DNA of 64,000 nt from Enterobacterales bacterium (GCA_041914905.1 JAYSCL010000001.1:43917-107916), one strand, 5' to 3'; positions 29,996 to 51,855 are shown, numbered from the stretch's first letter. Numbers and translations are program-made. Notes: generated by a model not told the origin, from the sequence alone.

Positions 29996-30113
29996 TTTTT
30001 CGCCTCAGCCTCATCAATCATGAACAGCGTTAGTGAAACTTGTTAAAGCTTTGCGACGCTTGCTTGATGCGAACGCTCTATGCAGTAAAGCGCGCCCAAG
30101 GCGCGCTTACTCT

Positions 30114-31325: not shown

Positions 31326-31400
31326 AGCTGTAAATCCTATCGTCGTTTATTGCCCATCAATGTTTTTTGCAGTTGATGGGCTTGCTACTGCACTTATCTG

Positions 31401-32534
31401 TTATGAACCAATCTTAACCAAGCCATTCATCAGCGAATCCAAACCACCATAAACGTTCAGATGACCAATGCGCTCCGATAACTTTTCCAACGTTTCGAGC
31501 TCTTTCAAGCGCAACAACACCGCATTACCTTCCATCATGCGCGCCGTGTTGTGTAACGAACGCGTTGCAGCCGTTTCCTCGCGACGTTTGATCAAGTTGG
31601 CTTCGGCTGCTTTTTGTGCCTGCACAACTTGATTCAAAATGTCTTTCATTTCACCGGGCAAAATAATGTCCTTCACACCCACCTGATCCAGATCGATACC
31701 GTATTGCGCCAGCGATTCAGTACACTCTTTTGCAATCACACGGCTGATCGAATGTTTGTCCGCCAGCAACTCGTCCAATGTGCGCGTACCAACCGCTTCA
31801 CGCAATGCCAATTGCAAACGGCGATAAACGTGATCATCAACTTGTTTCAGTTTTTGCGCGACCGTTTGTGGGTCACGAATTCTGAAGGCCGCATTCAAAT
31901 TGATTCGCAGCGATACACGATCTTTGGTCAAAATTTCCTGGCCACTGATTTCCACGTTCTGCAAACGCAAGTCATAGACCTGTAACGTCAATTGACGATT
32001 AACATGCCAGAACGCGTGCCGACCGGCCGACAATGCACTTTTTAAACGACCGTTTTCATACAACAAACCCACCGATTGTTCTGGTATTAGCGCTTGCAGC
32101 AAGCGATCACCTTTTTTACTAAGGTTTACACCTTGGCGCAGGATCTCTGATAACAACGGCTCTTGCACACGATACGTATCGCTAACATCGAACGTATCGA
32201 TTCGAATTGTGAACGGTGTTTTCCACCACACTACACGCTCACCTGGCTCGACTAAACGGATCAAACGATTGTCGCTATACAGCGCGCCCACTTCGTTTGC
32301 TGTCAGCTGTTTCACCATCACGTGATCGGCAAACGCGGCTTGCTTCAATAAAACGTCGAGTTGCGCATGCTGCACTTCACCTGAGCCCAGCGCGACGACA
32401 TCTGCATTTAAGCGATTGCCCCAATCGATTTTACGATGCCGACCTGGCGCCAGCACGTGTTGAAACTGTTTATCATGGAACAACAAACCACGTTCGTTAT
32501 CGCCAATTTTCCACTGTTTAATTTGCATCATCAT
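31401..32534 (-). CDS. SPFH/band-7 (slipin-like) protein with no TM anchor, immediately upstream of rtcB. The ORF extends to 32600; the start is placed at the MMMQIKQ methionine cluster.
   Basis: An SPFH core is followed by a C-terminal coiled-coil (VVQAQKAAEANLIKRREETAA). It shares orientation with rtcB, with a 75-nt gap between them. Confidence 0.6.
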   Translation of the reverse strand: MMMQIKQWKIGDNERGLLFHDKQFQHVLAPGRHRKIDWGNRLNADVVALGSGEVQHAQLDVLLKQAAFADHVMVKQLTANEVGALYSDNRLIRLVEPGERVVWWKTPFTIRIDTFDVSDTYRVQEPLLSEILRQGVNLSKKGDRLLQALIPEQSVGLLYENGRLKSALSAGRHAFWHVNRQLTLQVYDLRLQNVEISGQEILTKDRVSLRINLNAAFRIRDPQTVAQKLKQVDDHVYRRLQLALREAVGTRTLDELLADKHSISRVIAKECTESLAQYGIDLDQVGVKDIILPGEMKDILNQVVQAQKAAEANLIKRREETAATRSLHNTARMMEGNAVLLRLKELETLEKLSERIGHLNVYGGLDSLMNGLVKIGS

Positions 32535-32807
32535 TTTTTCCTTTTTTAAGAGCCGGCGAGGGGTCGACAACGTGTCATCGGCCAATTCAGTTGTGGTCAT
32601 GGTGCTATCCGTCCTGTGGATCGCTTCCTTCTTTTCACCATCACGACTTCTGCGATGGCCGTGGCTACGTTGTCGACGCAGCTCGCCGGTTTGGTGCTAC
32701 TGACGAAAACCCGAAAAGCAGTTTTCGCATTCACACCGTTGTTGGGCTTGCGCCCAATTGACTTAAGTGGGGTTTTCACCCCAAAGGCGTGAAAGGCCCT
32801 TTTCCAA

Positions 32808-32879
32808 GGAGCTTGTGCAGGATTCGAACCTACGACACATCGCATTGCTGCGATTGCTCTACCGCTGAGCTATCAAGCG
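32808..32879 (-). ncRNA. tRNA-like element (tRNA mimic or Y-RNA-like module, or a tRNA pseudogene) in the leader of the SPFH-rtcB operon.
   Basis: On the minus strand it reads CGCTTGATAGCTCAGCGGTAGAGCAATCGCAGCAATGCGATGTGTCGTAGGTTCGAATCCTGCACAAGCTCC. The D-arm GCTC/AGCGGTA/GAGC is perfect. The T-arm GTAGG/TTCGAAT/CCTGC is perfect. The anticodon stem ATCGC/GCGAT encloses a loop of only 6 nt. The acceptor stem has 5 central base pairs with mismatches at both ends. No CCA is encoded. Confidence 0.5.
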
Positions 32880-32984
32880 TTTGAGTTTGTGATCTCCAGT
32901 CGGTACATCCTTGCCCAATGGGCGGATGCCAGTCCGGTGTAACAACCAGAACCGCTGATCCGGAGCACTTGCTCACGATTACTA

Positions 32985-33003
32985 TTCCAAGTTGCGTGCC
33001 AAG
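32985..33003 (-). promoter_or_regulatory. Candidate sigma54 (-24/-12) promoter reading leftwards into the tRNA-like element, the SPFH gene and rtcB.
   Basis: The minus strand reads TTGGCACGCAACTTGGAA. TGGCACG is a perfect -24 element. The spacing is correct. The -12 element is TTGG rather than TTGC. It sits ~140 bp upstream of divergent rtcR, whose product is a sigma54 activator. Confidence 0.45.
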
Positions 33004-33146
33004 TCCGGGCTAGAAGATTCTATACGCATCTATCTTATTGTTTTTTAATGTTTTAATTTTTATTGGTTGGCAAAAAGCTGTTGGTTGATGTGCTTGATGG
33101 ATTACGTCAAACTTAACTATATAGATAGTTAATTATCGACAATGAT

Positions 33147-34739
33147 ATGAAGAAGAATGTTGTGCTCGGTATTGTGGGCCAGGCACTTGATAACCGTGGC
33201 AAGGGGTACAAACGTTGGGATGCTTGGCGCCCCTCCGTCAGTGTGTGTATGCAGCCCGATCTGCACGTCGATCGATTTGAACTGATTCATCAACCCCGAG
33301 ATTTCAAACTGGCCAACGAAGTCGCGACGGATATCGCCAGCGTTTCAGTGGCGACCACGGTTGGACTGCACCCCATCGAGTTCAACGATCCCTGGGATTT
33401 CGAAGAGGTGTACAGCAAGCTGCTGGATTTCTGTTTGGCCTATCGCTTTGACAATGAAAACGAACAGTATTTTTTGCACATCACAACCGGTACTCACGTC
33501 GCTCAAATTTGCTGGTTCTTGCTCTGCGAAGCCAACTACGTGCCCGCGCAGTTGCTGCAAAGTTCTCCGCAAAAATCAACCGAACACGGAAAAGGTTCCA
33601 TTCAGATCATTGATCTGGATCTGTCACGCTACGATGCGATCAGTTCGCGGTTTAAGCGGCATAAGCTCGAAGGCGAAGCGTTTCTCAAATCCGGCATTGC
33701 GACACGCAATGAGCGCTTTAATGCGATGATTCACGAAATTGAACGCGTTGTGATTCGTTCGAAAGCGCCATTACTGATCACTGGCCCCACCGGCGCCGGA
33801 AAATCGCAACTGGCAAAACGTGTTTACGAGCTGAAGCAACGACGTGCACAAGTGCAGGGTGAATTCATCGCGATAAATTGCGCAACACTGCGTGGTGACA
33901 ACGCGATGTCAACTTTGTTCGGCCATACCCGCGGTGCTTTCACTGGTGCACAACAAGCGCGAAAAGGACTTTTAGCCAAAGCACATAAAGGTCTGCTGTT
34001 TCTCGACGAGATCGGCGAGCTGGGGCTTGATGAACAGGCCATGTTGTTGCACGCACTCGAAGAAAAATGTTTTTACCCGGTCGGTGCCGATGTCGCCGTC
34101 AACAGCGATTTCCAGCTGATCGCCGGCACCAACCGTGATTTGCGCATTGCAGTGAAGAACGGTCAATTCCGTGACGACTTGCTCAGTCGAATCAATTTAT
34201 GGAGTTATGAATTACCCGGACTTAAAGATCGACGCGAAGACATCGAACCCAATATCGATTATGAGCTTCAGCAATTAGAAGCCGAGCAAAATCACAAAAT
34301 CAGTTTCAATAAACTGGCGCGCCAACAATACCTGACGTTTGCGAAGAGCACTGAAGCGAGTTGGAGTGGTAATTTTCGCGATCTGAACGGTTCGATCCGT
34401 CGTATGGTGACCTTGGCCGATGGTGGTCGCATCACCGAAGAAGTCGTCGCAACGGAAGTAGCGCGCCTGCGATTATTTTGGGCGGATACAAAACCAGAGC
34501 AAGCTTTGCCACGTTTGGAAAATTACGTTGCCACGGACGTGCTAGCCGAGATGGACCAATTTGATCAATGGCAACTGTCCAGGGTTATTGCTGTTTGCCA
34601 AGGCACCGCTTCACTGTCGGAGGCAGGTAGGCAATTGTTTGATCGCAGTCGCTTGCAAAAGTCATCGGTCAATGACAGCCATCGACTCCGACAATATTTA
34701 GCAAAATATGGATTGAGTGCCGATCAACTGCTGCGGTAA
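33147..34739 (+). CDS. rtcR: Sigma54-dependent transcriptional activator RtcR (CARF sensor domain, AAA+ domain, HTH).
   Basis: The N-terminus MKKNVVLGIVGQALDNRGKGYKRWDAWRPSVSVCMQ...ITTGTHVAQICWFLL matches E. coli RtcR. It has the AAA+ motif GPTGAGKSQLAKRVYEL. It is 530 aa. Confidence 0.85.
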   Translation: MKKNVVLGIVGQALDNRGKGYKRWDAWRPSVSVCMQPDLHVDRFELIHQPRDFKLANEVATDIASVSVATTVGLHPIEFNDPWDFEEVYSKLLDFCLAYRFDNENEQYFLHITTGTHVAQICWFLLCEANYVPAQLLQSSPQKSTEHGKGSIQIIDLDLSRYDAISSRFKRHKLEGEAFLKSGIATRNERFNAMIHEIERVVIRSKAPLLITGPTGAGKSQLAKRVYELKQRRAQVQGEFIAINCATLRGDNAMSTLFGHTRGAFTGAQQARKGLLAKAHKGLLFLDEIGELGLDEQAMLLHALEEKCFYPVGADVAVNSDFQLIAGTNRDLRIAVKNGQFRDDLLSRINLWSYELPGLKDRREDIEPNIDYELQQLEAEQNHKISFNKLARQQYLTFAKSTEASWSGNFRDLNGSIRRMVTLADGGRITEEVVATEVARLRLFWADTKPEQALPRLENYVATDVLAEMDQFDQWQLSRVIAVCQGTASLSEAGRQLFDRSRLQKSSVNDSHRLRQYLAKYGLSADQLLR

Positions 34740-34844: not shown

Positions 34845-35303
34845 TTAGGGTTCATAGATCACTAGTGTGTGGTTCTCACTGGCTAGTTCTTCATCGATGA
34901 TTTTGGCGATCACGTCCCAATTCCCGCCTGCGAGTCCCGCACCAATTAACGGATAAGCAATGCGTTTGCCGAAGAACGCGTTTTTTATGCATTTCATCGC
35001 GCTGCGAATGGCCTCGTAATCAGCTTTGTTGCGATTACCTCGCCAATCAAACTGAGTGTATGCGTTGACGACGTAAAAGGCATGATCACCCCTGCGAACC
35101 AAAACGGAACTAATTGAGCCCAGCTTTTCAACTGAACCTTTTGGTGTTTGAAGATCTGCTTCATAGGCTTCAGGGAAGTGCGCACGGATTTGCTTTGCAA
35201 TCCCTGCCCCCATAACACACATGCAATTGCAGCCATGGACTATAACATCGAAATGTCCTTCCTGTGCAAGCAGGAGAAGATCGCCTTTAACGGTTATACC
35301 CAT
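34845..35303 (-). CDS. Macro-domain protein (ADP-ribose / ADP-ribose-1''-phosphate binding or hydrolysing).
   Basis: Macro-domain motifs are present (VVHGCNCMCVMGAGIAKQI and AYPLIGAGLAGGNW). It is 152 aa. Confidence 0.7.
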   Translation of the reverse strand: MGITVKGDLLLLAQEGHFDVIVHGCNCMCVMGAGIAKQIRAHFPEAYEADLQTPKGSVEKLGSISSVLVRRGDHAFYVVNAYTQFDWRGNRNKADYEAIRSAMKCIKNAFFGKRIAYPLIGAGLAGGNWDVIAKIIDEELASENHTLVIYEP

Positions 35304-35362
35304 TTAATTTTTTCCCGCAAGGTTTCGATAGGAGTTTGTGGTAATAGGGTGAGTTAATTGCA

Positions 35363-36271
35363 TCAGATACTTGCATATTTGTTCTCGTAAAGCGCTTGCG
35401 CTTTCCGTCGAATCATTTCGCGATCAACCAGCTTATCAAGCCAGCGTTGGGGGATAGCCGCAACACCGTAAAACGCGCCAGCAAGTTGGCCGGTAATTGC
35501 AGCCGTAGTATCGGTGTCTTCACCAAGGCTAATCGCTTTTAGAATGGCGTCCTCAAAATTGCTTGTAGTGGCAACACACCAAAGCGAGGCTTCCAGTGAA
35601 TGAAGAACATAGCCCGAACTTTCAATGGCTTCCATCGATTTGGTACGCCAATCGCCGCGCACAATGCAGCGCAACTTGTCTGTGCTTGGCGTGAAGCTGG
35701 CATTGCTGAGCACCTGTTCCTTCGTTTCACCGCGTAGTGCACGAATCAGATGTTCAACATAAACCTGACAAGCTTCCAAACATTCGGTCGCACCGTGTGT
35801 AGTTTTGGAACTCAACGTAGCAAATTCGCGCGCCGCATTTAAGTCTTCGCAAAAATACATCGCGATCGGGGCCAGCCGCATCAAACTGCCGTTGCCTGCA
35901 GTGTTCGGATTGTTGCTGCCGGCATACGCCACACCGTTAGCGATGTACTGGCGTAAAGCCGTTGCCGTTGTCATGCCAATATCAAAACAGCGCCCGTTGC
36001 TGCTTAGGTAACCGTAATTCATCCAATTGCAGTAGCGGTTCATCTGATCAACCGGATCAAAGCTTTTGCAATACAATAAGCTTTCAGCAAGGCAAAGCGC
36101 CATTGATGCATCGTCGGTCCATTCACCGGGGCCGAGATCGAAGGGTCCACCACCAACCATTTCTGTGGGCGTTTCAAATGCGAAACGCTCACGAAATTCA
36201 ACTTGTGCGCCTAAAGCATCACCACAAGCAAGGCCAAGTAAACAGCCTTCGAAGCGTTCAATCATGTCCAC
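35363..36271 (-). CDS. ADP-ribosylglycohydrolase (ARH/DraG family).
   Basis: The N-terminus ERFEGCLLGLACGDALGAQVEF and the block GEWTDDASMAL are ARH-family signatures. Confidence 0.75.
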   Translation of the reverse strand: MDMIERFEGCLLGLACGDALGAQVEFRERFAFETPTEMVGGGPFDLGPGEWTDDASMALCLAESLLYCKSFDPVDQMNRYCNWMNYGYLSSNGRCFDIGMTTATALRQYIANGVAYAGSNNPNTAGNGSLMRLAPIAMYFCEDLNAAREFATLSSKTTHGATECLEACQVYVEHLIRALRGETKEQVLSNASFTPSTDKLRCIVRGDWRTKSMEAIESSGYVLHSLEASLWCVATTSNFEDAILKAISLGEDTDTTAAITGQLAGAFYGVAAIPQRWLDKLVDREMIRRKAQALYENKYASI

Positions 36272-36276
36272 TTGAT

Positions 36277-37050
36277 TTATGCTCCACTGGTAATCGTGCG
36301 CGGAAAAAAGTGTTGGCGCGTGCCATCTTTTAATCGAAACAGCTGGGCCGGACGATTAGCACCACCGCGCACGGCACCCACGATTTCTTCGAGAATCGCT
36401 GCATCATTAATACGACGACGAAAGGCGCTTTTATCAATGGGGCGACCGAGAATGATCTCGAAGGTTTTTTGCAAATCGCCCAACGTAAATTGCTCTGGTA
36501 ACAGGTGCACCGGCAGGGCGCTGTACTCGGTTTTGGCGCGCAATCGTTGCAAAGCATTTTCAAGCAGCAGGTCATGATCAAATGCGAGTGTTGCTGACAC
36601 GGCGTTGTCCGTGATCGGAAACCAGGCGACCGCATCGCTGTTACCACCTACCGACAGATCAATGGCATCACTATTGATCAGCGCAAAATACACCACCGTC
36701 ACCGACCAACCGCGTGGATCGCGTTGCTTATTGCCAACCGTCATCAACTGCTCGACATAGGGGCTGGCGACACCGGTTTTTGTTTTGAGGATACGCAGTG
36801 CGGCGGCGTCTAAATCGGCATCTTCTTGTAATCGAATAAACCCGCCAGGCAACGCCCACTTTCCCAATGCCGGATGATCGTTGCGTTTGACCAGCAGCAC
36901 CTGTAGTTGAGTGTCCTTGACCGTAAAGATCACCGTATCGACGGTCGTTAATGGCGCATCAAAGACTTTGGGGTCATAGCTGCGCAAAAATTCGCTTTCA
37001 CTTAAGGTCGTGGACATGCTGATAGGCTTGTTGAAATAAGATAGTTGCAT
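36277..37050 (-). CDS. nrtR: Nudix-related transcriptional regulator (NrtR type): a Nudix ADP-ribose-binding domain plus a C-terminal winged helix. The start is uncertain; the ORF extends to 37125.
   Basis: The Nudix box reads GKWALPGGFIRLQEDADLDAAALRILKTKTG. It has a C-terminal wHTH-like tail. It is divergent from the pncA-pncB-nadE operon and sits upstream of the ARH and macro genes. Confidence 0.6.
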   Translation of the reverse strand: MQLSYFNKPISMSTTLSESEFLRSYDPKVFDAPLTTVDTVIFTVKDTQLQVLLVKRNDHPALGKWALPGGFIRLQEDADLDAAALRILKTKTGVASPYVEQLMTVGNKQRDPRGWSVTVVYFALINSDAIDLSVGGNSDAVAWFPITDNAVSATLAFDHDLLLENALQRLRAKTEYSALPVHLLPEQFTLGDLQKTFEIILGRPIDKSAFRRRINDAAILEEIVGAVRGGANRPAQLFRLKDGTRQHFFPRTITSGA

Positions 37051-37118
37051 ATTGCCACTAACAGGATTAGAGTACAAGCATAGTTTTACAGAGCAACTAA
37101 GTATTAAAGGGGAGCACC

Positions 37119-37778
37119 ATGGCAAACATCATGTTGGGACTAAAAGCCCATACCGCTTGCTTCGATGTCGACGCGCAGTACACCTTTACACCGGTTTGCC
37201 CACAAGAGTTACCCGTACCTGGCGGTGATGAGATTGCAGCGGAACTTAATGCTCAAGCCCAGTTCGCGGCCGTTCGGGTCGGATCAAAAGACGCCCACTC
37301 ACCTCACGCCGTTTGGGTTGCCGATGAAAAGCATCCGCAATTTTCACCGGTAGCTGGTGACAACGTTGACATCCACTGGGTGCAACACGCGGTGCCCGGT
37401 AGCAAGGGTTTTGAGTTACTGGCGACCTTGCCACACCCAGCCGATTACGACTTTTTTGTTTGGAAGGGTGTTGAGCTCGATATGCATCCTTACGGTGCGT
37501 GTTACCACGATCTGCGTGATCGCTTGAGCACCGGCGTCATTGAGTACCTGAGAGCACATCAGATCCAAACGGTTATCGTTGGTGGCTTGGCAACCGATTA
37601 CTGTGTCAAAACTACGGTCATGCAATTACGCCGTGCCGGATTCGAGGTGGTGGTCAATTTGGGTGCCTGCCGCGGCATTAACAAAGACACCATCGACGCC
37701 GCTATCAAGGAAATGAAGAACGCCGATGTGCGCTTTGTTGCAACCGCGGCAGAGTTACAAAATCTGATCGCGGCGTAA
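37119..37778 (+). CDS. pncA: Nicotinamidase (isochorismatase family).
   Basis: The isochorismatase-family layout is present, with a catalytic Cys in VIVGGLATDYCVKTT. It is first in the NAD-salvage operon. Confidence 0.75.
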   Translation: MANIMLGLKAHTACFDVDAQYTFTPVCPQELPVPGGDEIAAELNAQAQFAAVRVGSKDAHSPHAVWVADEKHPQFSPVAGDNVDIHWVQHAVPGSKGFELLATLPHPADYDFFVWKGVELDMHPYGACYHDLRDRLSTGVIEYLRAHQIQTVIVGGLATDYCVKTTVMQLRRAGFEVVVNLGACRGINKDTIDAAIKEMKNADVRFVATAAELQNLIAA

Positions 37779-37794
37779 TTTGGGGTAACAGAAA

Positions 37795-38961
37795 ATGATT
37801 ATCGAATCGCTGCTTGATACCGACTTATACAAATTCACCATGATGCAAACGGTGTTGCATCAATTTCCATCGGCTCAGGTGGAGTACCGCTTTAAATGCC
37901 GCAATGCCGGTATCGATCTTAAAACGCTGGTTCCTGTGATTGAGCAAGAGCTTGATCACTTGTGTCAGCTGCGTTTTCAGCCGGAAGAGCTCGATTATTT
38001 AACGACATTGCGCTTTCTGAAATCTGATTTCATCGACTTTTTGCGTTTGTTCCAACTGAACCGTGACTACGTGCAGATCACGACCGATCCCGAATTCGAC
38101 ATCGTCATTCGTGGCCCATGGCTTCACACCATATTGTTTGAGATCCCGCTGCTGGCGATTGTTAACGAGAGCTACTTCCGTCATACACAGCCCAACGCGA
38201 ATTATGACGAAGGACGTCAGCGTCTTAAGCGAAAGATCGATTTGGTCAAAAACTTGAAGCCATATGACCGCTTCCAGTTTTCGGATTTTGGTACTCGCCG
38301 CCGCTTCAATCGGCGGTGGCACTACGAGGTGGTTGATCGCCTAATCGCTGAACTACCTCATCAGTTAACTGGCACCAGCAATGTGCATTTGGCGCGAACA
38401 AGAAAAATCAAACCGATCGGCACGATGGCACACGAGTTTTTGCAGGCCTGCCAGGCCTTGGGCGTGCGACTGGCCGATTCGCAAAAGTTTGCACTTGAAA
38501 CCTGGGTCAAAGAATACCGTGGCGATTTGGGTATTGCCCTGACCGATGTATGCGGTATTGATGCGTTTTTACGTGACTTCGATCTTTACTTCTGCAAATT
38601 GTTTGACGGTGTGCGTCACGATTCTGGCGATCCGTTTATCTGGGGCGAAAAGGTGTTGGCGCATTATCAAAGCATGCGTATTGATGCTCGCAGCAAAACC
38701 TTTGTGTTCAGCGACGGTTTGACGTTTCCACTCGCGCTTGAACTCTACAACCGATTTAAGGACCGCACCAACACCGCGTTTGGCATTGGCACCAACTTGA
38801 CCAATGACATGGGTTACGAAGCGCTCAATATCGTAATCAAAATGACCGAATGTAATGGCCAGCCGGTCGCAAAGCTAAGCGACTCACCCGGAAAAACGAT
38901 GTGTCGCGATGAAACTTATCTAGCGTACTTACGCAAAGTATTCCAAGTTGGCATCGAATAA
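37795..38961 (+). CDS. pncB: Nicotinate phosphoribosyltransferase.
   Basis: The N-terminus [21 protein letters not shown] and the ~390-aa length match PncB. Confidence 0.85.
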
Positions 38962-38975
38962 TAGGGAAGAAGAAC

Positions 38976-40673
38976 ATGAAAATTTTAATGGTACAATGCA
39001 ATTTCACCGTTGGTGATTTCTCGGGTAATAAACAGAAGATCATGGACATCATTTGGCGCCATGGTCACGACCACGATTTGATCGTGTTTTCGGAGTTGTG
39101 TTTATCGGGCTACTACCCGATGGATCTGATTCATCAACCGGGTTTTTTAGCCGCACAACACGATGTGATCGGTGAGCTAAGGATCGCCACACAATCGTTA
39201 AAAGCCGCGATCGTGATTGGCTTTATCGATCAGAACCATTGGACCGGCAAAGCGCATCACAATGGCTTGATGGTGTTAGCCAAGGGCGTCACCCAACTTG
39301 TCTATCACAAGCGATTGTTGCCCACTTACAACATCTTTGATGAAGCACGCCATTTTGAGCCAGGCAATCTGCCCGGCATGTTAATGCTAAATGGCGTGCG
39401 CATCGGTTTTGCGATCTGTGAAGACTTGTGGAATGACGATGAAGATGGCGACTACGCGATGATGCCGATTAAATTGTTGGCGCGTGACAATCCCGACTTT
39501 ATTGTCAGCATTAACGCATCGCCGTCGAATTTGCATAAACACAGCGAGCGTCTGGTCCGTTTCCAAAAGCTCAGCGCGAAGTATCAGATCCCGTTGGTGT
39601 ATGTGAATCAAGTGGGTGGCAACGATGAGATTGTGTTTGATGGCAATAGCTTTGTAACCGATGAGAAAGGTCAGCTGCGCGTTCAACTGAAAGCATTTGC
39701 TGAAGATGAGGCCTCGATTGAGTTCAATACTGAACAGGGATTTCGGACACTGACCGAGGCCAAGTTCAACGCACCAACGGATGCTGAGTTTTACTACCAG
39801 CAAATTGTTATGGGCTTACGTGACTACGTGGAAAAGTGTGGTTTCCGTTCCGTTGTTGTCGGCTCTAGTGGTGGTATCGATAGCGCGCTGACATTAGCCC
39901 TCGCTCGCGATGCTTTAGGTGCCGAGCATGTCGCCGCGATCACGATGCCTTCACGCTACTCGTCACAAGGCAGCGTTGGTGATTCCGAAATTCTGTGTCG
40001 CAATCTTGGCATTAAATTGTTTAATGCGCCGATTGAAGCGCAGTTTAAACAAGCCACCAATGACTTCACCGCAGCATTTGGTCATGCGCCATCACGATTG
40101 ACGCAAGAGAATATGCAGGCGCGTATTCGTGGTCGTATCTTGATGGAGTATTCCAATCATCACGGCAACCTGGTGTTGTCGACCGGCAATAAAAGCGAAA
40201 TGTCGGTTGGTTACGCCACCTTGTATGGTGATATGAACGGTGGACTGAATTTGATTGGTGACCTATACAAAATGGAAGTGTATGCGTTGGCGCGTTATTT
40301 CAATGAAAGACACGGACGCGAATTAATTCCGCAATCGATTATTGATAAGGCGCCTTCTGCCGAATTGTTCGAAGGTCAAACCGATCAGGACTCATTGCCG
40401 CCTTATCCGGTGCTCGATGCGATTTTGCGTTTGTATGTCGAACGTGATTTGTTGATCGCTCAAGAGATTGAAGACAACAGCGCGTTGATCGCGCGTTATC
40501 CTGATGTCGATATTGATCGTGTATTACGCATGGTCGATATCGCCGAATTTAAACGTCGGCAAGCACCACCGATTATTCGTGTGCACAAAAAATCGTTCGG
40601 TATCGGCCGTCGAATTCCGATAGCCAAACAATGGACAAGCCCTGCGGATGCTGTGGTGATTCAACATGGTTAA
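38976..40673 (+). CDS. nadE: Glutamine-dependent NAD+ synthetase (a nitrilase domain fused to an NAD-synthetase domain).
   Basis: It has an N-terminal CN-hydrolase domain. The C-terminal PP-loop reads VVVGSSGGIDSALTLAL. It is 565 aa. Confidence 0.85.
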   Translation: MKILMVQCNFTVGDFSGNKQKIMDIIWRHGHDHDLIVFSELCLSGYYPMDLIHQPGFLAAQHDVIGELRIATQSLKAAIVIGFIDQNHWTGKAHHNGLMVLAKGVTQLVYHKRLLPTYNIFDEARHFEPGNLPGMLMLNGVRIGFAICEDLWNDDEDGDYAMMPIKLLARDNPDFIVSINASPSNLHKHSERLVRFQKLSAKYQIPLVYVNQVGGNDEIVFDGNSFVTDEKGQLRVQLKAFAEDEASIEFNTEQGFRTLTEAKFNAPTDAEFYYQQIVMGLRDYVEKCGFRSVVVGSSGGIDSALTLALARDALGAEHVAAITMPSRYSSQGSVGDSEILCRNLGIKLFNAPIEAQFKQATNDFTAAFGHAPSRLTQENMQARIRGRILMEYSNHHGNLVLSTGNKSEMSVGYATLYGDMNGGLNLIGDLYKMEVYALARYFNERHGRELIPQSIIDKAPSAELFEGQTDQDSLPPYPVLDAILRLYVERDLLIAQEIEDNSALIARYPDVDIDRVLRMVDIAEFKRRQAPPIIRVHKKSFGIGRRIPIAKQWTSPADAVVIQHG

Positions 40674-41019
40674 TGAAACTGTCACGCTGTTTCGTCCCAC
40701 CGGACCGAATGAGCTCAAATTGGTTGAACAAAGTGGTTTTCGGCGTTGGCCACCACGGTTACCGGAGCAGCCGTTTTTTTATCCGGTAACCAATGAGCAA
40801 TACGCCGCCGAAATTGCACGCAACTGGAACGTTAAAGACAGCGGTTCCGGTTACGTCACGCGCTTTCAAGTGAAGAAAGCGTTTATGGATCGCTATCAAG
40901 TTCAAACCGTTGGCGCCCGCCACCACACCGAGTGGTGGGTACCGGCAGAGGAGTTGGAAGCATTAAATGACAATATTGTTGGACTCATCGAAGTGATCGG
41001 TGAGTTCAAACGAGAATAA
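40666..41019 (+). CDS. Hypothetical 117-aa protein, translationally coupled between nadE and kptA.
   Basis: It overlaps the nadE stop by 8 nt. Its own 3' end overlaps the first kptA start at 41000. No motif was recognised. Confidence 0.35.
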   Translation: MVNETVTLFRPTGPNELKLVEQSGFRRWPPRLPEQPFFYPVTNEQYAAEIARNWNVKDSGSGYVTRFQVKKAFMDRYQVQTVGARHHTEWWVPAEELEALNDNIVGLIEVIGEFKRE

Positions 41020-41032
41020 CAACGGAAGAAGT

Positions 41033-41566
41033 ATGAAAGACGAGAAAGTCAGTAAATTTTTAAGTTATGTGCTGCGACACAAACCCGATGCCATTGGCTT
41101 GCAATTGGATGCCAATGGCTGGGTCGATGTTGAAGAGCTGCTGGATAATATGGCTTACGCCGATATGGCGATATCGATTGAGACACTGCAACGCATCGTG
41201 CGCGAAAGCGATAAACAGCGATTTGCCTTTAGTGAAGATGGCGCACGAATTCGCGCCAATCAGGGGCACTCCATAAATGTTGATTTGGCATTGCCCGATC
41301 GAGAACCGCCCGCCGAGCTCTTTCATGGCACGGCAACACGCTTTTTGGAATCTATCAGGAAGGACGGTTTGATTCCGCGCTCACGCCATGCCGTTCATCT
41401 GTCAGCCAATTACGAAACTGCACTCAATGTTGGTCAGCGCCATGGCAGCCCGGTTGTACTGCGTATCGCTTCGGGAAAAATGTTTTCAGCGGGATTTCGT
41501 TTTCAGTGTTCAGAAAACGGTGTCTGGCTTACCGAAAAAGTGCCCGCCGAATTTATTTCGGTCTGA
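41033..41566 (+). CDS. kptA: RNA 2'-phosphotransferase KptA/Tpt1. An alternative start lies at 41000.
   Basis: The sequence is close to E. coli KptA throughout (SKFLSYVLRHKPDAIGLQLDANGW...RANQGHSI...LFHGT...RHAVHLSA...GQRHGSPVVL...ENGVWLT). It has a GGAAGAAG Shine-Dalgarno before the ATG at 41033. Confidence 0.85.
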   Translation: MKDEKVSKFLSYVLRHKPDAIGLQLDANGWVDVEELLDNMAYADMAISIETLQRIVRESDKQRFAFSEDGARIRANQGHSINVDLALPDREPPAELFHGTATRFLESIRKDGLIPRSRHAVHLSANYETALNVGQRHGSPVVLRIASGKMFSAGFRFQCSENGVWLTEKVPAEFISV

Positions 41567-41591
41567 CTGATTATTTTTAAGGAAAATAGTA

Positions 41592-42203
41592 TTGAATCTT
41601 GTAACTCAACTCTATGTTGAGCAATTAAAACACTGGCCTGAGTCCGGCCAACATATCATGGCTCAGTTTGATGAACACTCCATTATTGTTTATCAGGCTT
41701 ACCGACCAGCCATTGCGGAATACGCCGTACAGCATCAACAATTCGGTGGTGAGTTTAGTTTTGCTCGCATGAGTTGGATAAAACCAAACTTTTTGTGGAT
41801 GATGTTTCGCTCCGGCTGGGCCAACAAACCCGGGCAAGAACATATTCTTGCCATTCGCTTACGCCGGCAGTTTTTTGATGAATTATTGTCGAACGCCGTG
41901 GCGTCAACATTTGATACTAAAAAATTTGAGAACCGGGAAAGCTGGAAGGCTTCAGTCGAAAATTCCGAAGTAAGACTGCAATGGGATCCGGATCATGATC
42001 CCTTTGGTGCACCAATTACCAGACGCGCAATTCAACTCGGGCTGCGTGGTGAAATGCTAAAACGATTTGCTACAACTGCGCTTTTAAGCGTCGAAGACAT
42101 AACCGATTTTGTGCGAATGCAATCTCGACAGTTAGAAAGTGGCATCCAAAATTTGGTAGTTCCTATTGAAACCAGCTACAGCGGACCCGTTATTGGCCTG
42201 TGA
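41592..42203 (+). CDS. Conserved hypothetical protein, last gene of the NAD-salvage/kptA operon. No function was recognised.
   Basis: A 203-aa ORF with coding-like composition lies 25 nt after kptA. The start is uncertain (a TTG, or the internal Met at 41658). Confidence 0.4.
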   Translation: MNLVTQLYVEQLKHWPESGQHIMAQFDEHSIIVYQAYRPAIAEYAVQHQQFGGEFSFARMSWIKPNFLWMMFRSGWANKPGQEHILAIRLRRQFFDELLSNAVASTFDTKKFENRESWKASVENSEVRLQWDPDHDPFGAPITRRAIQLGLRGEMLKRFATTALLSVEDITDFVRMQSRQLESGIQNLVVPIETSYSGPVIGL

Positions 42204-42237: not shown

Positions 42238-42429
42238 TCAGTTTACGGGGTGTGGACAGTAGTACTTGAGAGTGACCTGCATGCTCGTTACACGGTTGGT
42301 GCCAAAGAAGACGTAGTCGTTTGCCGCCTTTGAATCCTCACGCTCAAACGCAATGTTCTTCGACAAATCGGTTAGCGACTTCTTTATCTCCAATGGCGCA
42401 TGCGACCCTTCGATGTATAAGGTGGTCAT
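42238..42429 (-). CDS. Small hypothetical protein coupled to the DUF3010-like gene.
   Basis: The 63-aa ORF starts with an ATGA overlap onto the stop of the upstream gene at 42426. Confidence 0.3.
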   Translation of the reverse strand: MTTLYIEGSHAPLEIKKSLTDLSKNIAFEREDSKAANDYVFFGTNRVTSMQVTLKYYCPHPVN

Positions 42430-42854
42430 TTTTTAGCCGCTTGCTTTGCCAAAGCTGCGCAGGCTGTACGGAATGCCTCCTCTTGGTATTTGTTCAGCGA
42501 ATCAGGAGAAGGGAAATCATGCTTGCGAGCCTGTGCGGCAATAGTCTGAGCAGATAGCAGTTCGACTTGTATTTCTTTGAGTAGCTGAAAGACCCCCTCA
42601 ATCTTGAAGGTTGTGGGGCCTCCTGCGTATTCTCCGTTCTTCGCACGCATCTTGATGACCACGTGGGAGACCTTGTTGTCTCGAAGGAACCCAGCAACAA
42701 GATCTGCAAATGACTGAACGTTGGCGGCTTTATCGTCGTCTGCCAGTGTAATTCGCTTGGTCGCGGTGGAGATGTAGTTGAACTGTCCCTCCGCCAACTC
42801 GGTGACGGCGAAGATAGCTTCGCTGCCCTTGATCTCAACGCCGCAAACTCGCAT
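42426..42854 (-). CDS. DUF3010-like hypothetical protein.
   Basis: A 142-aa ORF. The family assignment is from memory of an N-terminal pattern resembling MRVCGVEIKGSEA.... Confidence 0.35.
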   Translation of the reverse strand: MRVCGVEIKGSEAIFAVTELAEGQFNYISTATKRITLADDDKAANVQSFADLVAGFLRDNKVSHVVIKMRAKNGEYAGGPTTFKIEGVFQLLKEIQVELLSAQTIAAQARKHDFPSPDSLNKYQEEAFRTACAALAKQAAKK

Positions 42855-42905: not shown

Positions 42906-44852
42906 TCACTGGTTGGGCCAATCCGCTGGAACAAGTGCAGGTGGCTTGGTCCACGGCTCCTCAACCAGCGCATCCTGAAACCACTGATCGCGCAGGTTCG
43001 CATGCTCAGTGACAATTAGTTGGAAACCTGGAACATCGTTCTGGGTGAACTTTAGCAACAAGTCGAACAGCCGGCGCACAGCATCTAGGTCGGCGTCGGC
43101 TTCCGTCTTCTGCACCGAACCATCAGCATCCCTATAAACCTGCTCAGAGGGGAAATAGACCTGGGTTGGTTGGTCGATCAACAGGAAGCGCGGAATCGGA
43201 CGGTTGTTCTGTGCCGCGAATAGATGCAGGGCGAGCAATGCTGACAGGTGGTAGGCCAGATGGTTCTCGCCGCCACCGGTCCTGCCCATCGACACAGGAC
43301 GCTCGGGTCGATCGAAGATTATTGTCAATTGCGGCAGGTTGAGCCGCGCAGGGTAAGGACCGAATTCGGCGTTGAACTTTTGGATGTATCGCGACACCTG
43401 TGCGGAGATGTTGTTGAGGATCGATGTCAGGCGTTCGCTGCTGTCGTCAGCACCGATCTGCTCCTCAAGCTGCTTCACTTTGTTGCTGAGACGGCGATTC
43501 TCTGCTTCCAGTTTGGCAAGATCCTCATTCGGGAGGAGCGTTTCTAGGAACAGGCTGATACGGCCGACCACGCGCGCGGCCGCGTTGTTGCGGGTTCCCA
43601 TCTGGGCGATGAATTCATTGGCCGAGATCGCCGCGGATAGCTCCGCTTCCTTCTGCTTGATATCGCCTGCGATCCCATCCGCTTTGCCTGTTAATTCGGC
43701 AAGGTAGGCTTCGAGCTTGGGGCGCTGGCCGCTGGCAATGCGCAACTCATTTTCGAGCGATTCCAATTCATTGAGCAAGACGATGGCGACTGGGGATTCC
43801 AGCGCCAAGTTCTGCTCGCTGAACGGCCATTGCCATTCGCCGCTGTCTGGATTCTTCGGCAGTGCCTTGATTGAGGCCAGCCGGTCTATCTGTTCGGCGG
43901 CCTCATTTTCGTAGCCGCCAGCCCGCTTGGCGAACTGTCGTGCCGCGTCAATCCGGGCCTGCGTATCTCGGCGATCCTGACGCAGTTGGGCCAGCTCATC
44001 TTCCAGAAACGAGACCCGGCTGCCGTCGTCGTCTGGCACGGTTTCGGGATTCCACGACAGCGCCAACCTCAAGGCATCAATGATCCCGTCGGTATTCGAG
44101 TTCTCGTCGGTGTTGCGGATGACCCCGACCGTTTTGGCTTCTGAGTAGAGGCCGATAGCCTGTACATGCGACGTGTCGACGGCGTCGCGCGCCTGCTCCA
44201 GCTTCTTGTTGCTAATCCTCAGATCGCGCTGCGCTAAGCGCAGCTTGGATTCCAACTCGTAACGATCGTGAGAGGAGACGCCAAGCAAGATTGGCAACGT
44301 GTCGCGGATCGCTTGCGGTTGAAACTGCTCGTTCTGGCGATAGAAAAGTTGATCCTTGTTGGCGACAAGCCCCTGCTTCTGGAACAGGTAATAGAACGTG
44401 TGCTTGACGTTCGCGTCGTAGCTATCTCGACTGTGCTCAAGAGCGACTTCGGTGCGGTTCTCGGGAATTCCAAGCAAGCGCGACAGCAGTTCGACAATGC
44501 TGTCATCGTCAGTGTTGACCGCCAGATCCTTGAACTCGGGCACCTGCAATTGGGCCCCCCTTCGCAACATTGCCGTGCTGCAACTGGCGCCACCCCCGGG
44601 CGGGGTCGGCTTGGCAACCAGCACCTGTTCTTTCTCGAACTGGTAGATCACGGCGAACCAAGACACTTTGTCACGGATGATGCCTTCCGGAACGTTGAAC
44701 GACGAGCGTCCCATGCAGTATTCGATAATCTCGGAGAGCGCAGACTTGCCGGTGGAGGAGCGGCCGGTGATAACGTTGAGTCCGTCTACCTTGAACCGGA
44801 GGTCACGGCGCTGGCTGCCATGGCTGTAGATGTGGATAGATCTGATCTTCAT
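42906..44852 (-). CDS. SMC-like ABC ATPase of a three-component ABC (ABC-3C) conflict system (DUF3732-like).
   Basis: The N-terminal Walker A reads NVITGRSSTGKSALSE. A long coiled-coil middle region follows. The C-terminal Walker B/D-loop reads FLLIDQPTQVYFP. Its start overlaps the stop of the upstream gene. Confidence 0.6.
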   Translation of the reverse strand: MKIRSIHIYSHGSQRRDLRFKVDGLNVITGRSSTGKSALSEIIEYCMGRSSFNVPEGIIRDKVSWFAVIYQFEKEQVLVAKPTPPGGGASCSTAMLRRGAQLQVPEFKDLAVNTDDDSIVELLSRLLGIPENRTEVALEHSRDSYDANVKHTFYYLFQKQGLVANKDQLFYRQNEQFQPQAIRDTLPILLGVSSHDRYELESKLRLAQRDLRISNKKLEQARDAVDTSHVQAIGLYSEAKTVGVIRNTDENSNTDGIIDALRLALSWNPETVPDDDGSRVSFLEDELAQLRQDRRDTQARIDAARQFAKRAGGYENEAAEQIDRLASIKALPKNPDSGEWQWPFSEQNLALESPVAIVLLNELESLENELRIASGQRPKLEAYLAELTGKADGIAGDIKQKEAELSAAISANEFIAQMGTRNNAAARVVGRISLFLETLLPNEDLAKLEAENRRLSNKVKQLEEQIGADDSSERLTSILNNISAQVSRYIQKFNAEFGPYPARLNLPQLTIIFDRPERPVSMGRTGGGENHLAYHLSALLALHLFAAQNNRPIPRFLLIDQPTQVYFPSEQVYRDADGSVQKTEADADLDAVRRLFDLLLKFTQNDVPGFQLIVTEHANLRDQWFQDALVEEPWTKPPALVPADWPNQ

Positions 44853-47113: not shown

Positions 47114-50657
<3,544 letters not shown>

Positions 50658-50728
50658 CTTGCTCGCATTCAGTTTGGCAGAAAGCAAAAACGGCAGACTG
50701 AGCTGCCGTTTTGGTCAATATTCATTGT

Positions 50729-51829: not shown

Positions 51830-51855
51830 GATGAGCGCTTTTAGGTCATTAAGTT

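Follow-up and report, generated by a model that had tools for sequence, protein, structure and literature searches.

Gene content of the module

The window, that is, the whole 64-kb stretch of Enterobacterales DNA that was analysed, contains two back-to-back operons encoding NAD+ recycling enzymes, three proteins with an ADP-ribosyltransferase (ART) fold, KptA among them, and two ADP-ribose-removing enzymes, and both operons are probably switched by an ADP-ribose-sensing repressor. An ORF check and Pfam and NCBIfam profile searches recovered the nine genes of the original prediction at the same coordinates and with the same domains, including the four domains proposed for HMM checks (NrtR, macro, ARH and Tpt1), all found with Pfam:

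34845-35303, minus strand, macro-domain protein of 152 aa, DarG/TARG1-like class (Pfam Macro, 35.7 bits)
35363-36271, minus strand, ARH-family ADP-ribosylglycohydrolase of 302 aa (Pfam ADP_ribosyl_GH, 263 bits)
36277-37050, minus strand, nrtR, Nudix-like effector domain and winged helix (Pfam NUDIX and NrtR_WHD)
37119-37778, plus strand, pncA, nicotinamidase with isochorismatase fold (Pfam Isochorismatase, 56.7 bits)
37795-38961, plus strand, pncB, nicotinate phosphoribosyltransferase (NCBIfam, 581 bits, above the cut-off of 379)
38976-40673, plus strand, nadE, glutamine-dependent NAD+ synthetase with CN_hydrolase and NAD_synthase domains (NCBIfam, 625 bits, above the cut-off of 479)
40666-41019, plus strand, p117 (117-aa ORF), minimal ART-fold protein with a candidate R10-Y39-E89 triad
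41033-41566, plus strand, kptA/tpt1, RNA 2'-phosphotransferase (Pfam PTS_2-RNA, 176 bits)
41592-42203, plus strand, DUF4291 protein (203-aa ORF; DUF4291, 223 bits), ART fold

PncA scores 75.8 bits against NCBIfam PRK11609, under the cut-off of 174, and shows the Asp, Lys and Cys triad residues. The plus-strand genes had been described as packed with overlaps, which holds for nadE and the 117-aa ORF (8 nt), whereas 13-25 nt separate the genes at the remaining junctions. A search for promoter-like and terminator-like signals between these genes gave nothing above chance, and their appearance fits the proposed single transcript. NadD (NaMN adenylyltransferase) is absent from the module, which is therefore not self-sufficient for NAD synthesis, although a self-sufficient module had been suggested. 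Neither a 2H nor a cyclic phosphodiesterase that would open Appr>p, a by-product of KptA, was found in the module.

NrtR, its predicted operators and predicted regulon

The maximal ORF of nrtR spans 36277-37125. The start in the source's gene calls is at 37050 (257 aa), and an alternative start at 37017 (246 aa) is favoured because the NrtR orthologue from Permianibacter has 246 aa. The protein reaches 274 bits against the NCBIfam NtrR model (cut-off 400). Its Nudix box reads RILKTK in place of REUxEE, and this degeneration fits the expectation for a sensor rather than an enzyme, in line with the predicted NrtR-type Nudix-wHTH regulator. The gap between nrtR and the ARH gene is 5 nt, as predicted. 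Binding of ADP-ribose causes NrtR to leave DNA, and the nrtR<>pncA-pncB-nadE divergon is known in Pseudomonas (PMC2330246).

Two tandem sites were identified in the interval 37040-37118, which the original prediction had proposed to search for an operator, using the motif AGTTG-N7-CAACT derived from seven independent nrtR-divergent regions:

37043-37059, predicted NrtR operator site 1, AGTTGCATATTGCCACT, one mismatch to the motif
37082-37098, predicted NrtR operator site 2, AGTTTTACAGAGCAACT, 39 bp from site 1

Both sites are nearly base-for-base conserved in Permianibacter fluminis, where the 21 nt surrounding site 1 are identical. Similar tandem pairs occur in the nrtR-divergent regions of loci L033, L041, L049, L051, L061, L066, L070 and L092, and 12 of the 26 motif matches in 1.37 Mb of loci lie at nrtR promoters. 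All one-mismatch matches in the window (3/3) fall in the nrtR-pncA promoter region or in that of a second gene pair, and the NrtR regulon is thus predicted from these sites to reach beyond the module, to 26561-28574:

26561-26577 and 26601-26617, second pair of predicted NrtR operators, AGTTGTATTAAGCCACT and AGTTGTATAAAGCACAT
26638-27660, plus strand, SPFH1, SPFH/Band-7 protein (Pfam Band_7), predicted member of the NrtR regulon
27657-28574, plus strand, NAD-kinase-like (NADK/DAGK-fold) protein, translationally coupled to SPFH1

Both sites of the second pair are also conserved upstream of the Permianibacter orthologue, so that both pairs are kept there, whereas the flanking intergenic DNA has diverged. 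No sigma-70-like promoter was recognised beside the predicted operators. The tandem sites at nrtR resemble those of other nrtR loci and of soNrtR (PMC2330246). Orthologues of SPFH1 are the first genes of NrtR-controlled operons in L033, L065 and L092, and the NAD-kinase-like gene lies directly upstream of kptA in L033 and L065. The NAD-kinase-like protein matches NCBIfam NAD kinase models with E 5e-6, well below their cut-offs, and PDB NADK2 with E 4e-3; its relatives are named 'NAD kinase' or 'sugar kinase' by their sources.

KptA, the erasers and the ART-fold proteins

The kptA ORF is open from 41000, and the source's gene call begins at 41033 (177 aa). KptA exceeds the cut-off of NCBIfam NF002014 (264 versus 239 bits) and carries the LRH, RANQGHS and RSRH motifs. 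The ARH protein shows TDD and DTDT metal-binding motifs and has a 72% identical orthologue in Permianibacter; its best NCBIfam match is Tri1 (325 bits, cut-off 490). The macro protein, encoded by the last gene of the nrtR operon, scores 60 bits against NCBIfam DarG, far under the cut-off of 250, and 60.8 bits against the PADLOC DarG model, and its orthologue (56% identical) follows a KptA-p117 fusion in L066. The proposal that such enzymes process KptA-type adducts agrees with published biochemistry, in which KptA-type 5'-phosphate ADP-ribosylation of RNA and DNA is reversed by macro and ARH enzymes (PMC11833690).

The two small ORFs flanking kptA had been proposed as uncharacterised specificity factors, but both are modelled with confidence as ART folds, with RhsP2, an RNA 2'-OH ART using an R-Y-E triad (PMC12340436), as the nearest solved structure in both cases. 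The p117 protein matched no Pfam or NCBIfam family; its R10 and E89 are invariant and its Y39 is near-invariant, and these residues lie on the model's strands 1, 2 and 5. DUF4291 has Gln (Q130/Q148) at the position of the catalytic Glu, and its role may be limited to binding of NAD or ADP-ribose. Based on these models, KptA, p117 and DUF4291 are predicted to form a co-regulated set of three ART-fold genes in the operon divergent from nrtR. The module would accordingly place three potential ADP-ribose writers beside two erasers, and its description as a de-modification kit falls short.

Elsewhere, p117 is fused to KptA (L066), to ARH (L070) and, in other genomes, to Macro, NADAR, Nudix or isochorismatase domains; the nucleotide-metabolism domains Ham1, NT5C and Nudix are among its partners. 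By residue count p117 is slightly acidic, with no obvious basic excess, unlike the positively charged RNA-binding surface of RhsP2. About 68 of 80 sampled p117 genes lie outside any NAD/ADPr neighbourhood, suggesting that the core role of p117 may be unrelated to the operon.

Recurrence and the RtcB neighbourhood

In Permianibacter fluminis, the six-gene order pncA-pncB-nadE-117aa-kptA-DUF4291 is retained, again diverging from nrtR-ARH (62-87% amino-acid identity), and the SPFH-NADK-like pair adjoins these operons. The arrangement is therefore not a chance juxtaposition, and the embedding of kptA in a pncAB-nadE operon is not unique to this strain. Chitinimonas has the order NadR-PnuC-ARH-NrtR <> PncA~p117-2OG oxygenase-PncB-NadE-Macro-NadM/Nudix-KptA-phosphatase, and Aquabacterium combines SPFH2-RtcB, ARH, Macro, SPFH1-NADKl-KptA-p117-DUF4291-PARG, NadM/Nudix, NadE and PncB. 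In Ralstonia, nrtR diverges from SPFH-NADK-like with tandem operators. Accessory genes (NADAR, PARG, phosphatase, PnuC-NadR) differ among genomes.

Between the SPFH1/NAD-kinase-like pair and the module lies an RNA-repair locus (28571-34739), regarded here as an associated neighbour with no claim to membership of the NrtR regulon (proteins assigned with Pfam and NCBIfam):

28571-29995, minus strand, HEAT-repeat protein
30114-31325, minus strand, RtcB
31401-32600, minus strand, SPFH2
32809-32879, minus strand, tRNA-like element
33147-34739, plus strand, RtcR

RtcR or RtcB is close by in the window, Chitinimonas, Pelomonas and Aquabacterium. Among p117 loci, RtcR/RtcB is near 3 of the 12 ADPr-type loci versus 0 of the 68 others (Fisher p = 0.0027). 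The RtcB neighbourhood noted in the original prediction thus recurs in three other genera, so that the link with RNA repair is not just an accident of this locus. No 2'-phosphates arise from RtcB ligation, and the connection of KptA with RtcB is hence one of co-location only, in four lineages. According to the published view, KptA-containing NAD operons have no RNA genes (PMC8120803). The module lies in a variable region alongside a defence island, with a Lamassu system and other conflict-type clusters.

A proposed ADP-ribose-inducible regulon and its alternatives

The gene content, the modelled folds, the conservation of the operators, the synteny and the fusions shown here lead us to favour an ADP-ribose-inducible regulon that couples NAD+-consuming ADP-ribosyl transfer with adduct removal and recycling of nicotinamide to NAD+, to which we assign roughly an even chance (about 0.5); the target of the transfer is probably RNA or nucleic-acid ends. 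In the resting state, NrtR would be bound at both tandem operators that separate nrtR from pncA, as well as at the two upstream of the SPFH/NAD-kinase-like pair. Cleavage of NAD+ would raise free ADP-ribose and, given the known response of the NrtR family, release the repressor from DNA. The derepressed PncA, PncB and NadE would convert nicotinamide via NaMN and NaAD to NAD+, with NadD supplied from elsewhere, and the SPFH/NAD-kinase-like pair would also be made. KptA, by its family chemistry, and presumably the ART-fold p117 and DUF4291, whose substrates are conjectural, would use NAD+; ARH and the macro hydrolase, by the eraser activities of their families, would strip ADP-ribose from the products. 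The ADP-ribose so freed may sustain induction in a feedback loop. Damaged or end-modified RNAs may be the physiological substrates, as suggested by the recurrent RtcR/RtcB neighbourhood.

Among the alternatives, an ordinary NAD-homeostasis regulon with passenger genes is possible, if rather unlikely. NrtR would control pncA-pncB-nadE as in Pseudomonas, and KptA, p117, DUF4291, ARH and macro would act on soluble NAD/ADP-ribose derivatives (Appr1p, O-acetyl-ADPr, ADPr-phosphates), with neither a macromolecular target nor a link to RtcB. The core divergon is indeed a textbook NrtR target (PMC2330246), the review of KptA NAD/ADPr operons allows for non-RNA substrates (PMC8120803), and the metabolic partners (PnuC, NadR, NadM-Nudix, NAD-kinase-like), the Ham1, NT5C and Nudix fusions and the high conservation, which is compatible with a small-molecule substrate, all point the same way. 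However, the RtcR/RtcB association argues for RNA, as do the equivalog-level score of KptA as an RNA 2'-phosphotransferase and the modification of RNA by the nearest structural relative of p117 and DUF4291, and macromolecular adducts are the substrates with which the ARH and DarG/TARG1-like macro classes are chiefly associated. The p117 and DUF4291 proteins show 60-80% identity across phyla, a level of conservation seldom seen in conflict proteins and one that the favoured model does not explain.

Host immunity to foreign ADP-ribosylation (the 'ARG-centric' systems of Iyer, Burroughs and Aravind) seems improbable to us. Here ARH and macro would undo marks left by phage or T6SS ARTs, NrtR would sense the freed ADP-ribose, and NAD salvage would offset the loss. 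The NrtR-ARH-macro arrangement fits the published template (PMC9503650), the variable island beside Lamassu and the genome-to-genome turnover of accessory genes suit it, and the best family matches are the immunity and antitoxin proteins Tri1 and DarG, although both scores are far under the family cut-offs. Yet the template demands no genomically coupled ART, whereas three ART-fold genes lie in the divergent co-regulated operon and p117 itself is fused to ARH or macro elsewhere; moreover, a phosphatase or chaperone partner is missing from the window, and the module proteins are highly conserved rather than fast-evolving. Still more doubtful is a toxin-antitoxin or abortive infection system, in which p117 and/or DUF4291 would be RNA-targeting ART toxins (RhsP2- or CmdT-like) restrained by ARH and macro and blocking translation on infection. 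ART toxins are their closest structural neighbours, a defence island lies alongside, and the combination of writers with erasers, also as fusions (ART-ARH, ART-macro, ART-NADAR), is characteristic of DarTG-, Tre1/Tri1- and DraTG-type pairs; in Aquabacterium, DUF4291 is followed by PARG, which is the one enzyme known to erase RhsP2-type 2'-OH ADP-ribosylation (PMC11833690). Against this, most p117 genes stand alone without an eraser in their vicinity, which a free toxin would hardly permit; writers and erasers sit in opposite operons under one repressor rather than side by side as a compact two-gene unit; the catalytic Glu is missing from DUF4291; conservation across phyla is extreme; and PADLOC gave no matches except the weak DarG-like macro.

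Comparison with known systems

The NrtR/pncAB-nadE divergon (PMC2330246), KptA in NAD/ADPr operons (PMC8120803) and NrtR-ARH-macro systems (PMC9503650) have been published before, as has the assignment of DUF4291 to an ART-like family, so that the layout was largely foreseen by earlier comparative genomics and its novelty was initially overstated. Like Pseudomonas nrtR(-nadD)<>pncA-pncB-nadE (Rodionov et al. 2008, PMC2330246), the window has a Nudix-wHTH repressor divergent from pncA-pncB-nadE, palindromic operators in the shared intergenic region and ADP-ribose as the expected inducer. The window differs from Pseudomonas in that ARH and macro, not nadD, share the nrtR transcript and that three ART-fold genes are added to the salvage operon. 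In place of the generic GT-N7-AC core, its operators follow AGTTG-N7-C(A/C)ACT and form tandem pairs spaced 39-40 bp apart. The same paper also describes nrtR<>nrtX-nrtY, where the NrtR targets are functionally uncharacterised, in Proteus, Hahella, Streptomyces and further organisms. We infer that nrtX-nrtY is the SPFH/NADK-like pair, which in the window carries the same operators as Ralstonia nrtR<>SPFH-NADK-like and lies 8.5 kb from nrtR, unlike nrtX-nrtY.

KptA operons with macro, ARH, NADAR and NAD-pathway genes (de Souza & Aravind 2012, as summarised in PMC8120803) resemble the window; that summary gives them no RNA-related genes, whereas RtcR/RtcB is adjacent here and recurs in three other genera. 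The accessible literature on these operons makes no mention of a p117 partner or of KptA-p117 fusions. The ARH-centred systems under NrtR or WYL control, for which a role against viral ADP-ribosylation has been predicted (Iyer et al. 2022, PMC9503650), share NrtR, ARH, optional macro/NADAR, variable accessories and the conflict-island context; they are defined by the lack of a coupled ART, unlike the window with its three ART-fold genes and full nicotinamide salvage route, and their phosphatase or chaperone is absent here. Compared with the RhsP2 toxin (PDB 7RT7; PMC12340436), p117 and DUF4291 have no detectable sequence similarity, are not Rhs/T6SS cargo, lack an RhsI2-type immunity partner and are conserved, not polymorphic; in DUF4291, Gln also replaces the catalytic Glu. 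Speculatively, the module may be likened to archaeal ArkI/KptA (Ohira et al. 2022, PMC9095486), in which a kinase and KptA write and erase the RNA 2'-phosphate in reversible tRNA 2'-phosphorylation: in L033 and L065, kptA shares its operon with a kinase-like gene that is predicted to be co-regulated with it in the window, although the NAD-kinase/DAGK fold of this kinase-like protein differs from the protein-kinase fold of ArkI. The three ART-fold genes extend the known NrtR salvage divergon, and the overall layout recurs in other bacteria.

Gene content and organization of the module

The module consists of two divergent operons at 34845-42203, and the ORF map and the Pfam and NCBIfam scans agree with each of the genes originally listed there:

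34845-35303, minus strand, macro domain protein (ORF map, Pfam, NCBIfam)
35363-36271, minus strand, ARH-family ADP-ribosylglycohydrolase (ORF map, Pfam, NCBIfam)
stop at 36277, minus strand, NrtR (Nudix plus NrtR-winged-helix), 5 nt from the ARH start
37119-37778, plus strand, PncA (ORF map, Pfam, NCBIfam)
37795-38961, plus strand, PncB (ORF map, Pfam, NCBIfam)
38976-40673, plus strand, glutamine-dependent NadE (ORF map, Pfam, NCBIfam)
40666-41019, plus strand, 117-aa ORF encoding p117, which matches no family
start at 41033, plus strand, KptA/Tpt1, above the NCBIfam equivalog cut-off
41592-42203, plus strand, DUF4291 protein (Pfam)

The starts of KptA (41033) and NrtR (37050) are those of the source's gene calls. 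The plus-strand genes are tightly packed, as described originally, but an overlap exists only between nadE and the 117-aa ORF; gaps of 13-25 nt separate the rest. Promoter and terminator consensus scans of this block gave signal counts at or below shuffle expectation, which speak neither for nor against an internal kptA promoter. By inspection, the module enzymes retain the motifs expected of active proteins. [quoted passage not shown]

NrtR and its predicted operators

NrtR combines an N-terminal NUDIX domain (Pfam, 46 bits) with a C-terminal winged helix (NrtR_WHD, 75 bits). It scores 274 bits against NCBIfam NF050029, below the equivalog cut-off of 400 bits; judged by its sequence, it is a family member by architecture and not an equivalog of the curated set. 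By eye, its Nudix box is degenerate (RILKTK in place of REUxEE), which fits the expectation for a ligand sensor. Both tandem sites and release by ADP-ribose have been demonstrated experimentally for NrtR of Shewanella (PMC2330246), and by analogy we infer that the window NrtR would respond to ADP-ribose.

The operator motif was derived from the regions upstream of nrtR in loci fetched through p117 homologues, where tandem AGTTG-N7-CAACT palindromes are common to seven Burkholderiales nrtR loci. With one mismatch allowed, the motif has 26 matches in 1.37 Mb of fetched loci, including 12 at nrtR promoters, and three matches within the 64-kb window (37043-37059, 37082-37098 and 26561-26577). The operator palindrome sought at 37040-37118 was therefore found, as two predicted sites, 37043-37059 and 37082-37098, in the 100-bp nrtR-pncA spacer. 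In the corresponding spacer of Permianibacter fluminis, a block of ~60 nt with both sites is kept (site 1 identical at 21/21 positions), whereas the DNA on either side has diverged and differs by a 29-nt indel. Tandem predicted operators of this type upstream of NAD-metabolism genes are kept in Permianibacter and at least seven other nrtR loci. A metagenome scan with NrtR returned only two short contigs with 43-53% identity, of no help for synteny.

KptA and two putative ADP-ribosyltransferases

KptA scores 176 bits against Pfam PTS_2-RNA (cut-off 26) and 263.8 bits against NCBIfam NF002014 (equivalog cut-off 239), and the motifs LRH, RIRANQGHS and PRSRH, seen by eye, provide a candidate RH-R-R tetrad. 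We know of no natural 2'-phosphate RNA substrate in bacteria, which is why the role of bacterial KptA/Tpt1 has been open for about 25 years. Bacterial KptA produces 5'-P-ADPr RNA and DNA, from which macro and ARH enzymes take off the ADP-ribose (PMC11833690).

The 117- and 203-aa ORFs beside kptA were originally proposed to encode specificity factors; structure prediction instead assigns both products an ADP-ribosyltransferase (ART) fold, so that KptA would have two further ART-fold proteins at its sides. For p117, the model has a split beta-sheet ART fold and is the sole source of the assignment: p117 has no match in Pfam, NCBIfam, PADLOC or PDB sequences, and its profile gave chance-level matches only against PDB sequences. 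Profile comparison of p117 with DUF4291 detected no similarity, so the two are not detectable paralogues, though the predicted fold is shared.

Judging from the model, p117 appears to represent a large ART-fold family that has no Pfam or NCBIfam model, comprising more than 3650 clusters at 90% identity and about 2330 at 50%. RefSeq-derived names of its members are 'hypothetical' or, wrongly, 'ADP-ribosylation/crystallin J1'. Members from Gammaproteobacteria, Cyanobacteria, Planctomycetota and Actinomycetota are 70-80% identical. R10 and E89 are invariant, Y39 is kept in at least 90% of sequences, and the three residues are placed on model strands 1 (R10), 2 (Y39) and 5 (E89), forming a candidate [HR]-[YS]-E triad. 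The RNA 2'-OH ART toxin RhsP2 (PDB 7RT7) possesses an R-Y-E triad with similar spacing (PMC12340436), and we infer that R10, Y39 and E89 are equivalent to its residues. In other genomes, p117 is fused to ARH, Macro, NADAR, Nudix, isochorismatase or KptA domains, the KptA-p117 fusion occurring in Ideonella. Examples from the fetched loci (L-numbers) are:

L066:9419-10345, KptA-p117 fusion ORF
L070:1950-3269, ARH-p117 fusion ORF
L035:9107-10342, further p117 fusion ORF (Chitinimonas)

Identity of p117 with the 'ARPP' protein of Aravind was ruled out: a conserved Cys and a duplicated beta-meander characterize ARPP, but p117 lacks Cys and is predicted to adopt an ART fold. The phage search found p117 homologues in three huge-phage records only (genomes of 640-735 kb; for example, L090 7001-7291 in LR756502.1), and thus p117 is not a typical phage gene; the single significant match in the viral fold library was a GIY-YIG fusion protein. 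On a Deinococcus megaplasmid (L089), the p117 homologue is divergent from a NADAR gene. In Lysobacter soli (L002 8001-16360), the p117 gene is solitary, located after aspS and ahead of two small unknown ORFs; genes of the kynurenine pathway for de novo NAD synthesis (3-HAO, ACMSD-like, kynureninase) lie within a few kb and are possibly a further NAD link for the family.

The DUF4291 (PF14124) product has an ART fold in the model, with an invariant Gln at the expected position of the catalytic Glu. DUF4291 was predicted in 2025 to be an atypical ART (PMC12522546), and the modeled fold agrees with and sharpens that prediction. In Aquabacterium, a microbial-type PARG lies directly after DUF4291 (L065 10969-11820, plus strand). 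PARG is the sole hydrolase class reported to reverse RNA 2'-OH ADP-ribosylation of the RhsP2 type (PMC11833690), and its position after DUF4291 fits the RhsP2-like fold predicted for the latter.

ARH and macro proteins

The ARH protein (Pfam ADP_ribosyl_GH, 263 bits) possesses the TDD and DTDT acidic metal-binding motifs. Its scores are below the NCBIfam cut-offs for both Tri1 (325 vs 490 bits) and DraG (151 vs 337 bits), and no Tre1 or DraT partner was found. The 152-aa macro protein scores 60 bits against the DarG cut-off of 250. DarT was found neither by the Pfam scan nor by PADLOC, and DarG was ruled out as the identity of the macro protein by this lack of DarT, the lack of a C-terminal antitoxin domain and the sub-threshold score. 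The module is thus neither a DarTG nor a Tri1 system, and no PADLOC model matches NrtR, ARH, p117, KptA or DUF4291.

Conserved synteny and the RtcB neighborhood

Within the compared data, the source organism is closest to Permianibacter and to an uncultured 'Pseudomonadaceae' MAG. Permianibacter carries NadR-PnuC-NADAR-ARH-NrtR divergent from PncA-PncB-NadE-p117-KptA-DUF4291, with 62-87% identity to the window; the comparative check on whether kptA is embedded in pncA-pncB-nadE operons elsewhere thus has a positive answer, with the same gene order. In Chitinimonas, the gene order is shuffled and includes Macro, NadM-Nudix, a 2OG oxygenase and a DSP phosphatase; RtcR lies at a distance of 5 kb. 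The 2OG-Fe(II) oxygenase gene of this version (L035 10394-10987, plus strand) lies between p117 and pncB, and the DSP/PTP-type phosphatase gene (L035 16129-16674, plus strand) follows kptA. In Pelomonas Root1237, NrtR is divergent from p117-DUF4291-ARH, with RtcR and RtcB alongside. Aquabacterium combines SPFH2-RtcB, ARH, Macro, an operon from SPFH1 to DUF4291 followed by bacterial PARG, and NadM-Nudix-NadE-PncB.

Among 80 p117 loci, RtcR or RtcB lies near three of the 12 ADPr-type and none of the 68 others (Fisher p = 0.0027; three genera, phylogenetically non-independent). In the window, RtcR divergent from SPFH2-RtcB-HEAT is located between the two NrtR-marked operons. This rtcB operon has a HEAT-repeat protein (28571-29995, minus strand) and the SPFH/HflK-like SPFH2 (31401-32600, minus strand) in place of RtcA; SPFH2 also adjoins RtcB in Aquabacterium (L065 2329-4773). 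Between rtcR and the operon, on the rtcB strand, there is a tRNA-like element (32809-32879, minus strand) that scores 36 bits against the Rfam tRNA model, has canonical D and T arms and an anticodon loop of just 6 nt, and is not called by ARAGORN. Since RtcR reportedly detects fragments of damaged tRNA, the presence of a tRNA mimic in the rtcB operon leader may be relevant.

The SPFH1/NADK-like pair

The third one-mismatch operator match (26561-26577) precedes an SPFH/Band-7 gene (SPFH1, 26638-27660), and a second, weaker predicted operator lies 40 bp downstream (26601-26617). SPFH1 is coupled to a 305-aa NADK-like protein (27657-28574) remotely related to NAD kinases: its best score against curated NAD kinase models is 25.8 bits (cut-offs ~300), and the relationship is of the remote NADK/DAGK-fold kind only (PDB NADK2, E 4e-3). 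In Pelomonas (L033) and Aquabacterium (L065), orthologs of the pair occupy the first two positions in NrtR-controlled SPFH-NADKlike-KptA-p117-DUF4291 operons. In Ralstonia, the pair is the entire divergent operon beside nrtR, with tandem predicted operators, and in Permianibacter it directly adjoins the nrtR locus, with both predicted operator sites kept. The predicted NrtR regulon would thus extend beyond the module to this pair, which probably corresponds to 'nrtX-nrtY' of Rodionov et al.

Genomic surroundings

The module is part of a variable region bordering the gene cluster of the chromosomal replication origin; gyrB-recF-dnaN-dnaA (47114-53208, minus strand), followed by yidC and mnmE on the opposite strand, is a few kb away from it. 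Convergent with the end of the DUF4291 gene are a DUF3010 protein (142 aa) and an overlapping 63-aa ORF (42238-42854, minus strand). A complete Lamassu/ABC-3C system comes next (42906-46569, minus strand), with LmuB (445 bits, DUF3732), LmuC/MC3 and LmuA/CTD7; PADLOC recognizes it as a separate system adjoining the module. Its G+C content of 54-57%, above the ~49% of the surrounding DNA, suggests separate acquisition. A five-gene cluster at 15843-26420 (minus strand), encoding a SWIM-domain protein, a VWA (CoxE-like) protein, DUF5682, a MoxR-type AAA+ ATPase and a 1242-aa DUF4132 protein, resembles MoxR-vWA conflict-type systems and ends just upstream of the second predicted NrtR operator pair.

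Proposed function

The best-supported reading, to which we give a probability of about one half, is an ADP-ribose-induced module joining NAD-consuming transferases, erasers and recycling of nicotinamide to NAD+. KptA, p117 and perhaps DUF4291 would consume NAD, ARH and the macro protein would act as erasers, and PncA, PncB and NadE would return the nicotinamide by-product to NAD+, with NadD supplied from outside the module; the erasers would set free ADP-ribose and so strengthen induction. The p117 fusions, the RhsP2-like folds and the RtcB neighborhood point to RNA or nucleic-acid ends as the likely substrates. Against this reading count the mostly solitary occurrence of p117 genes, the non-basic character of p117, the missing catalytic Glu of DUF4291 and the absence of an Appr>p-processing enzyme.

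Purely soluble NAD/ADPr metabolism would account for the salvage genes under NrtR, and we regard it as unlikely given the features that point to RNA. Somewhat less likely still is immunity against foreign ARTs. The ARG-centric anti-viral-ART systems (PMC9503650) possess a Nudix- or WYL-type one-component repressor, as does the module, with NrtR directly upstream of ARH, and the Chitinimonas phosphatase is of the rhodanese-phosphatase type described as their partner; however, these systems are defined by a de-ADP-ribosylating enzyme without a coupled ART or sirtuin, whereas here three ART-fold genes occupy the divergent operon. A toxin-antitoxin arrangement, in which ART-fold proteins would be countered by ARH and macro, seems improbable.

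A bolder extension of the ADP-ribose-induced module is a long shot. The NADK-like protein would be a 2'-OH kinase making the long-sought KptA substrate in bacteria (2'-phosphorylated RNA or 2'-phospho-ADP-ribosylated ends), p117 and DUF4291 would be RhsP2-like RNA ribose ARTs, and, with RtcB and with ARH, macro or PARG as erasers, they would form an inducible, reversible RNA 2'-modification/repair cycle that covers its own cost through nicotinamide salvage. The NADK-like gene shares an operon with kptA in Pelomonas and Aquabacterium, and in the window it has predicted NrtR operators in common with the kptA operon. If true, such a cycle would parallel, in bacteria, the ArkI/KptA system of archaea; under the ordinary reading, what is gained is a better annotation of an NrtR regulon, with nrtX-nrtY probably identified. 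The window, Permianibacter, Chitinimonas, Pelomonas, Ideonella and Aquabacterium jointly offer a small set of co-regulated genes around KptA that is amenable to experiments, with a predicted ADP-ribose-responsive switch and defined operators, matching erasers, a kinase-like partner, a recurrent RtcB neighbor and two extremely conserved uncharacterized proteins of predicted ART fold, of which one occurs as a KptA fusion in some species.

Comparison with known systems

Several elements of this arrangement have been described already, namely the divergent nrtR and pncA-pncB-nadE operons (PMC2330246), KptA within NAD/ADPr operons (PMC8120803, citing de Souza & Aravind 2012), NrtR-ARH-macro systems (PMC9503650), and DUF4291 as ART-like, having Nudix, Macro, ARH and KptA as neighbors (PMC12522546). 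Apparently new are, for the p117 family, the predicted ART fold, the candidate R-Y-E triad and the fusion to KptA; for the DUF4291 model, RhsP2 as the closest structural relative; and the operator consensus, together with its occurrence upstream of the SPFH/NADK-like pair. The repeated linkage to RtcB is apparently new as well, and it contradicts the published statement that such KptA operons have no RNA genes.
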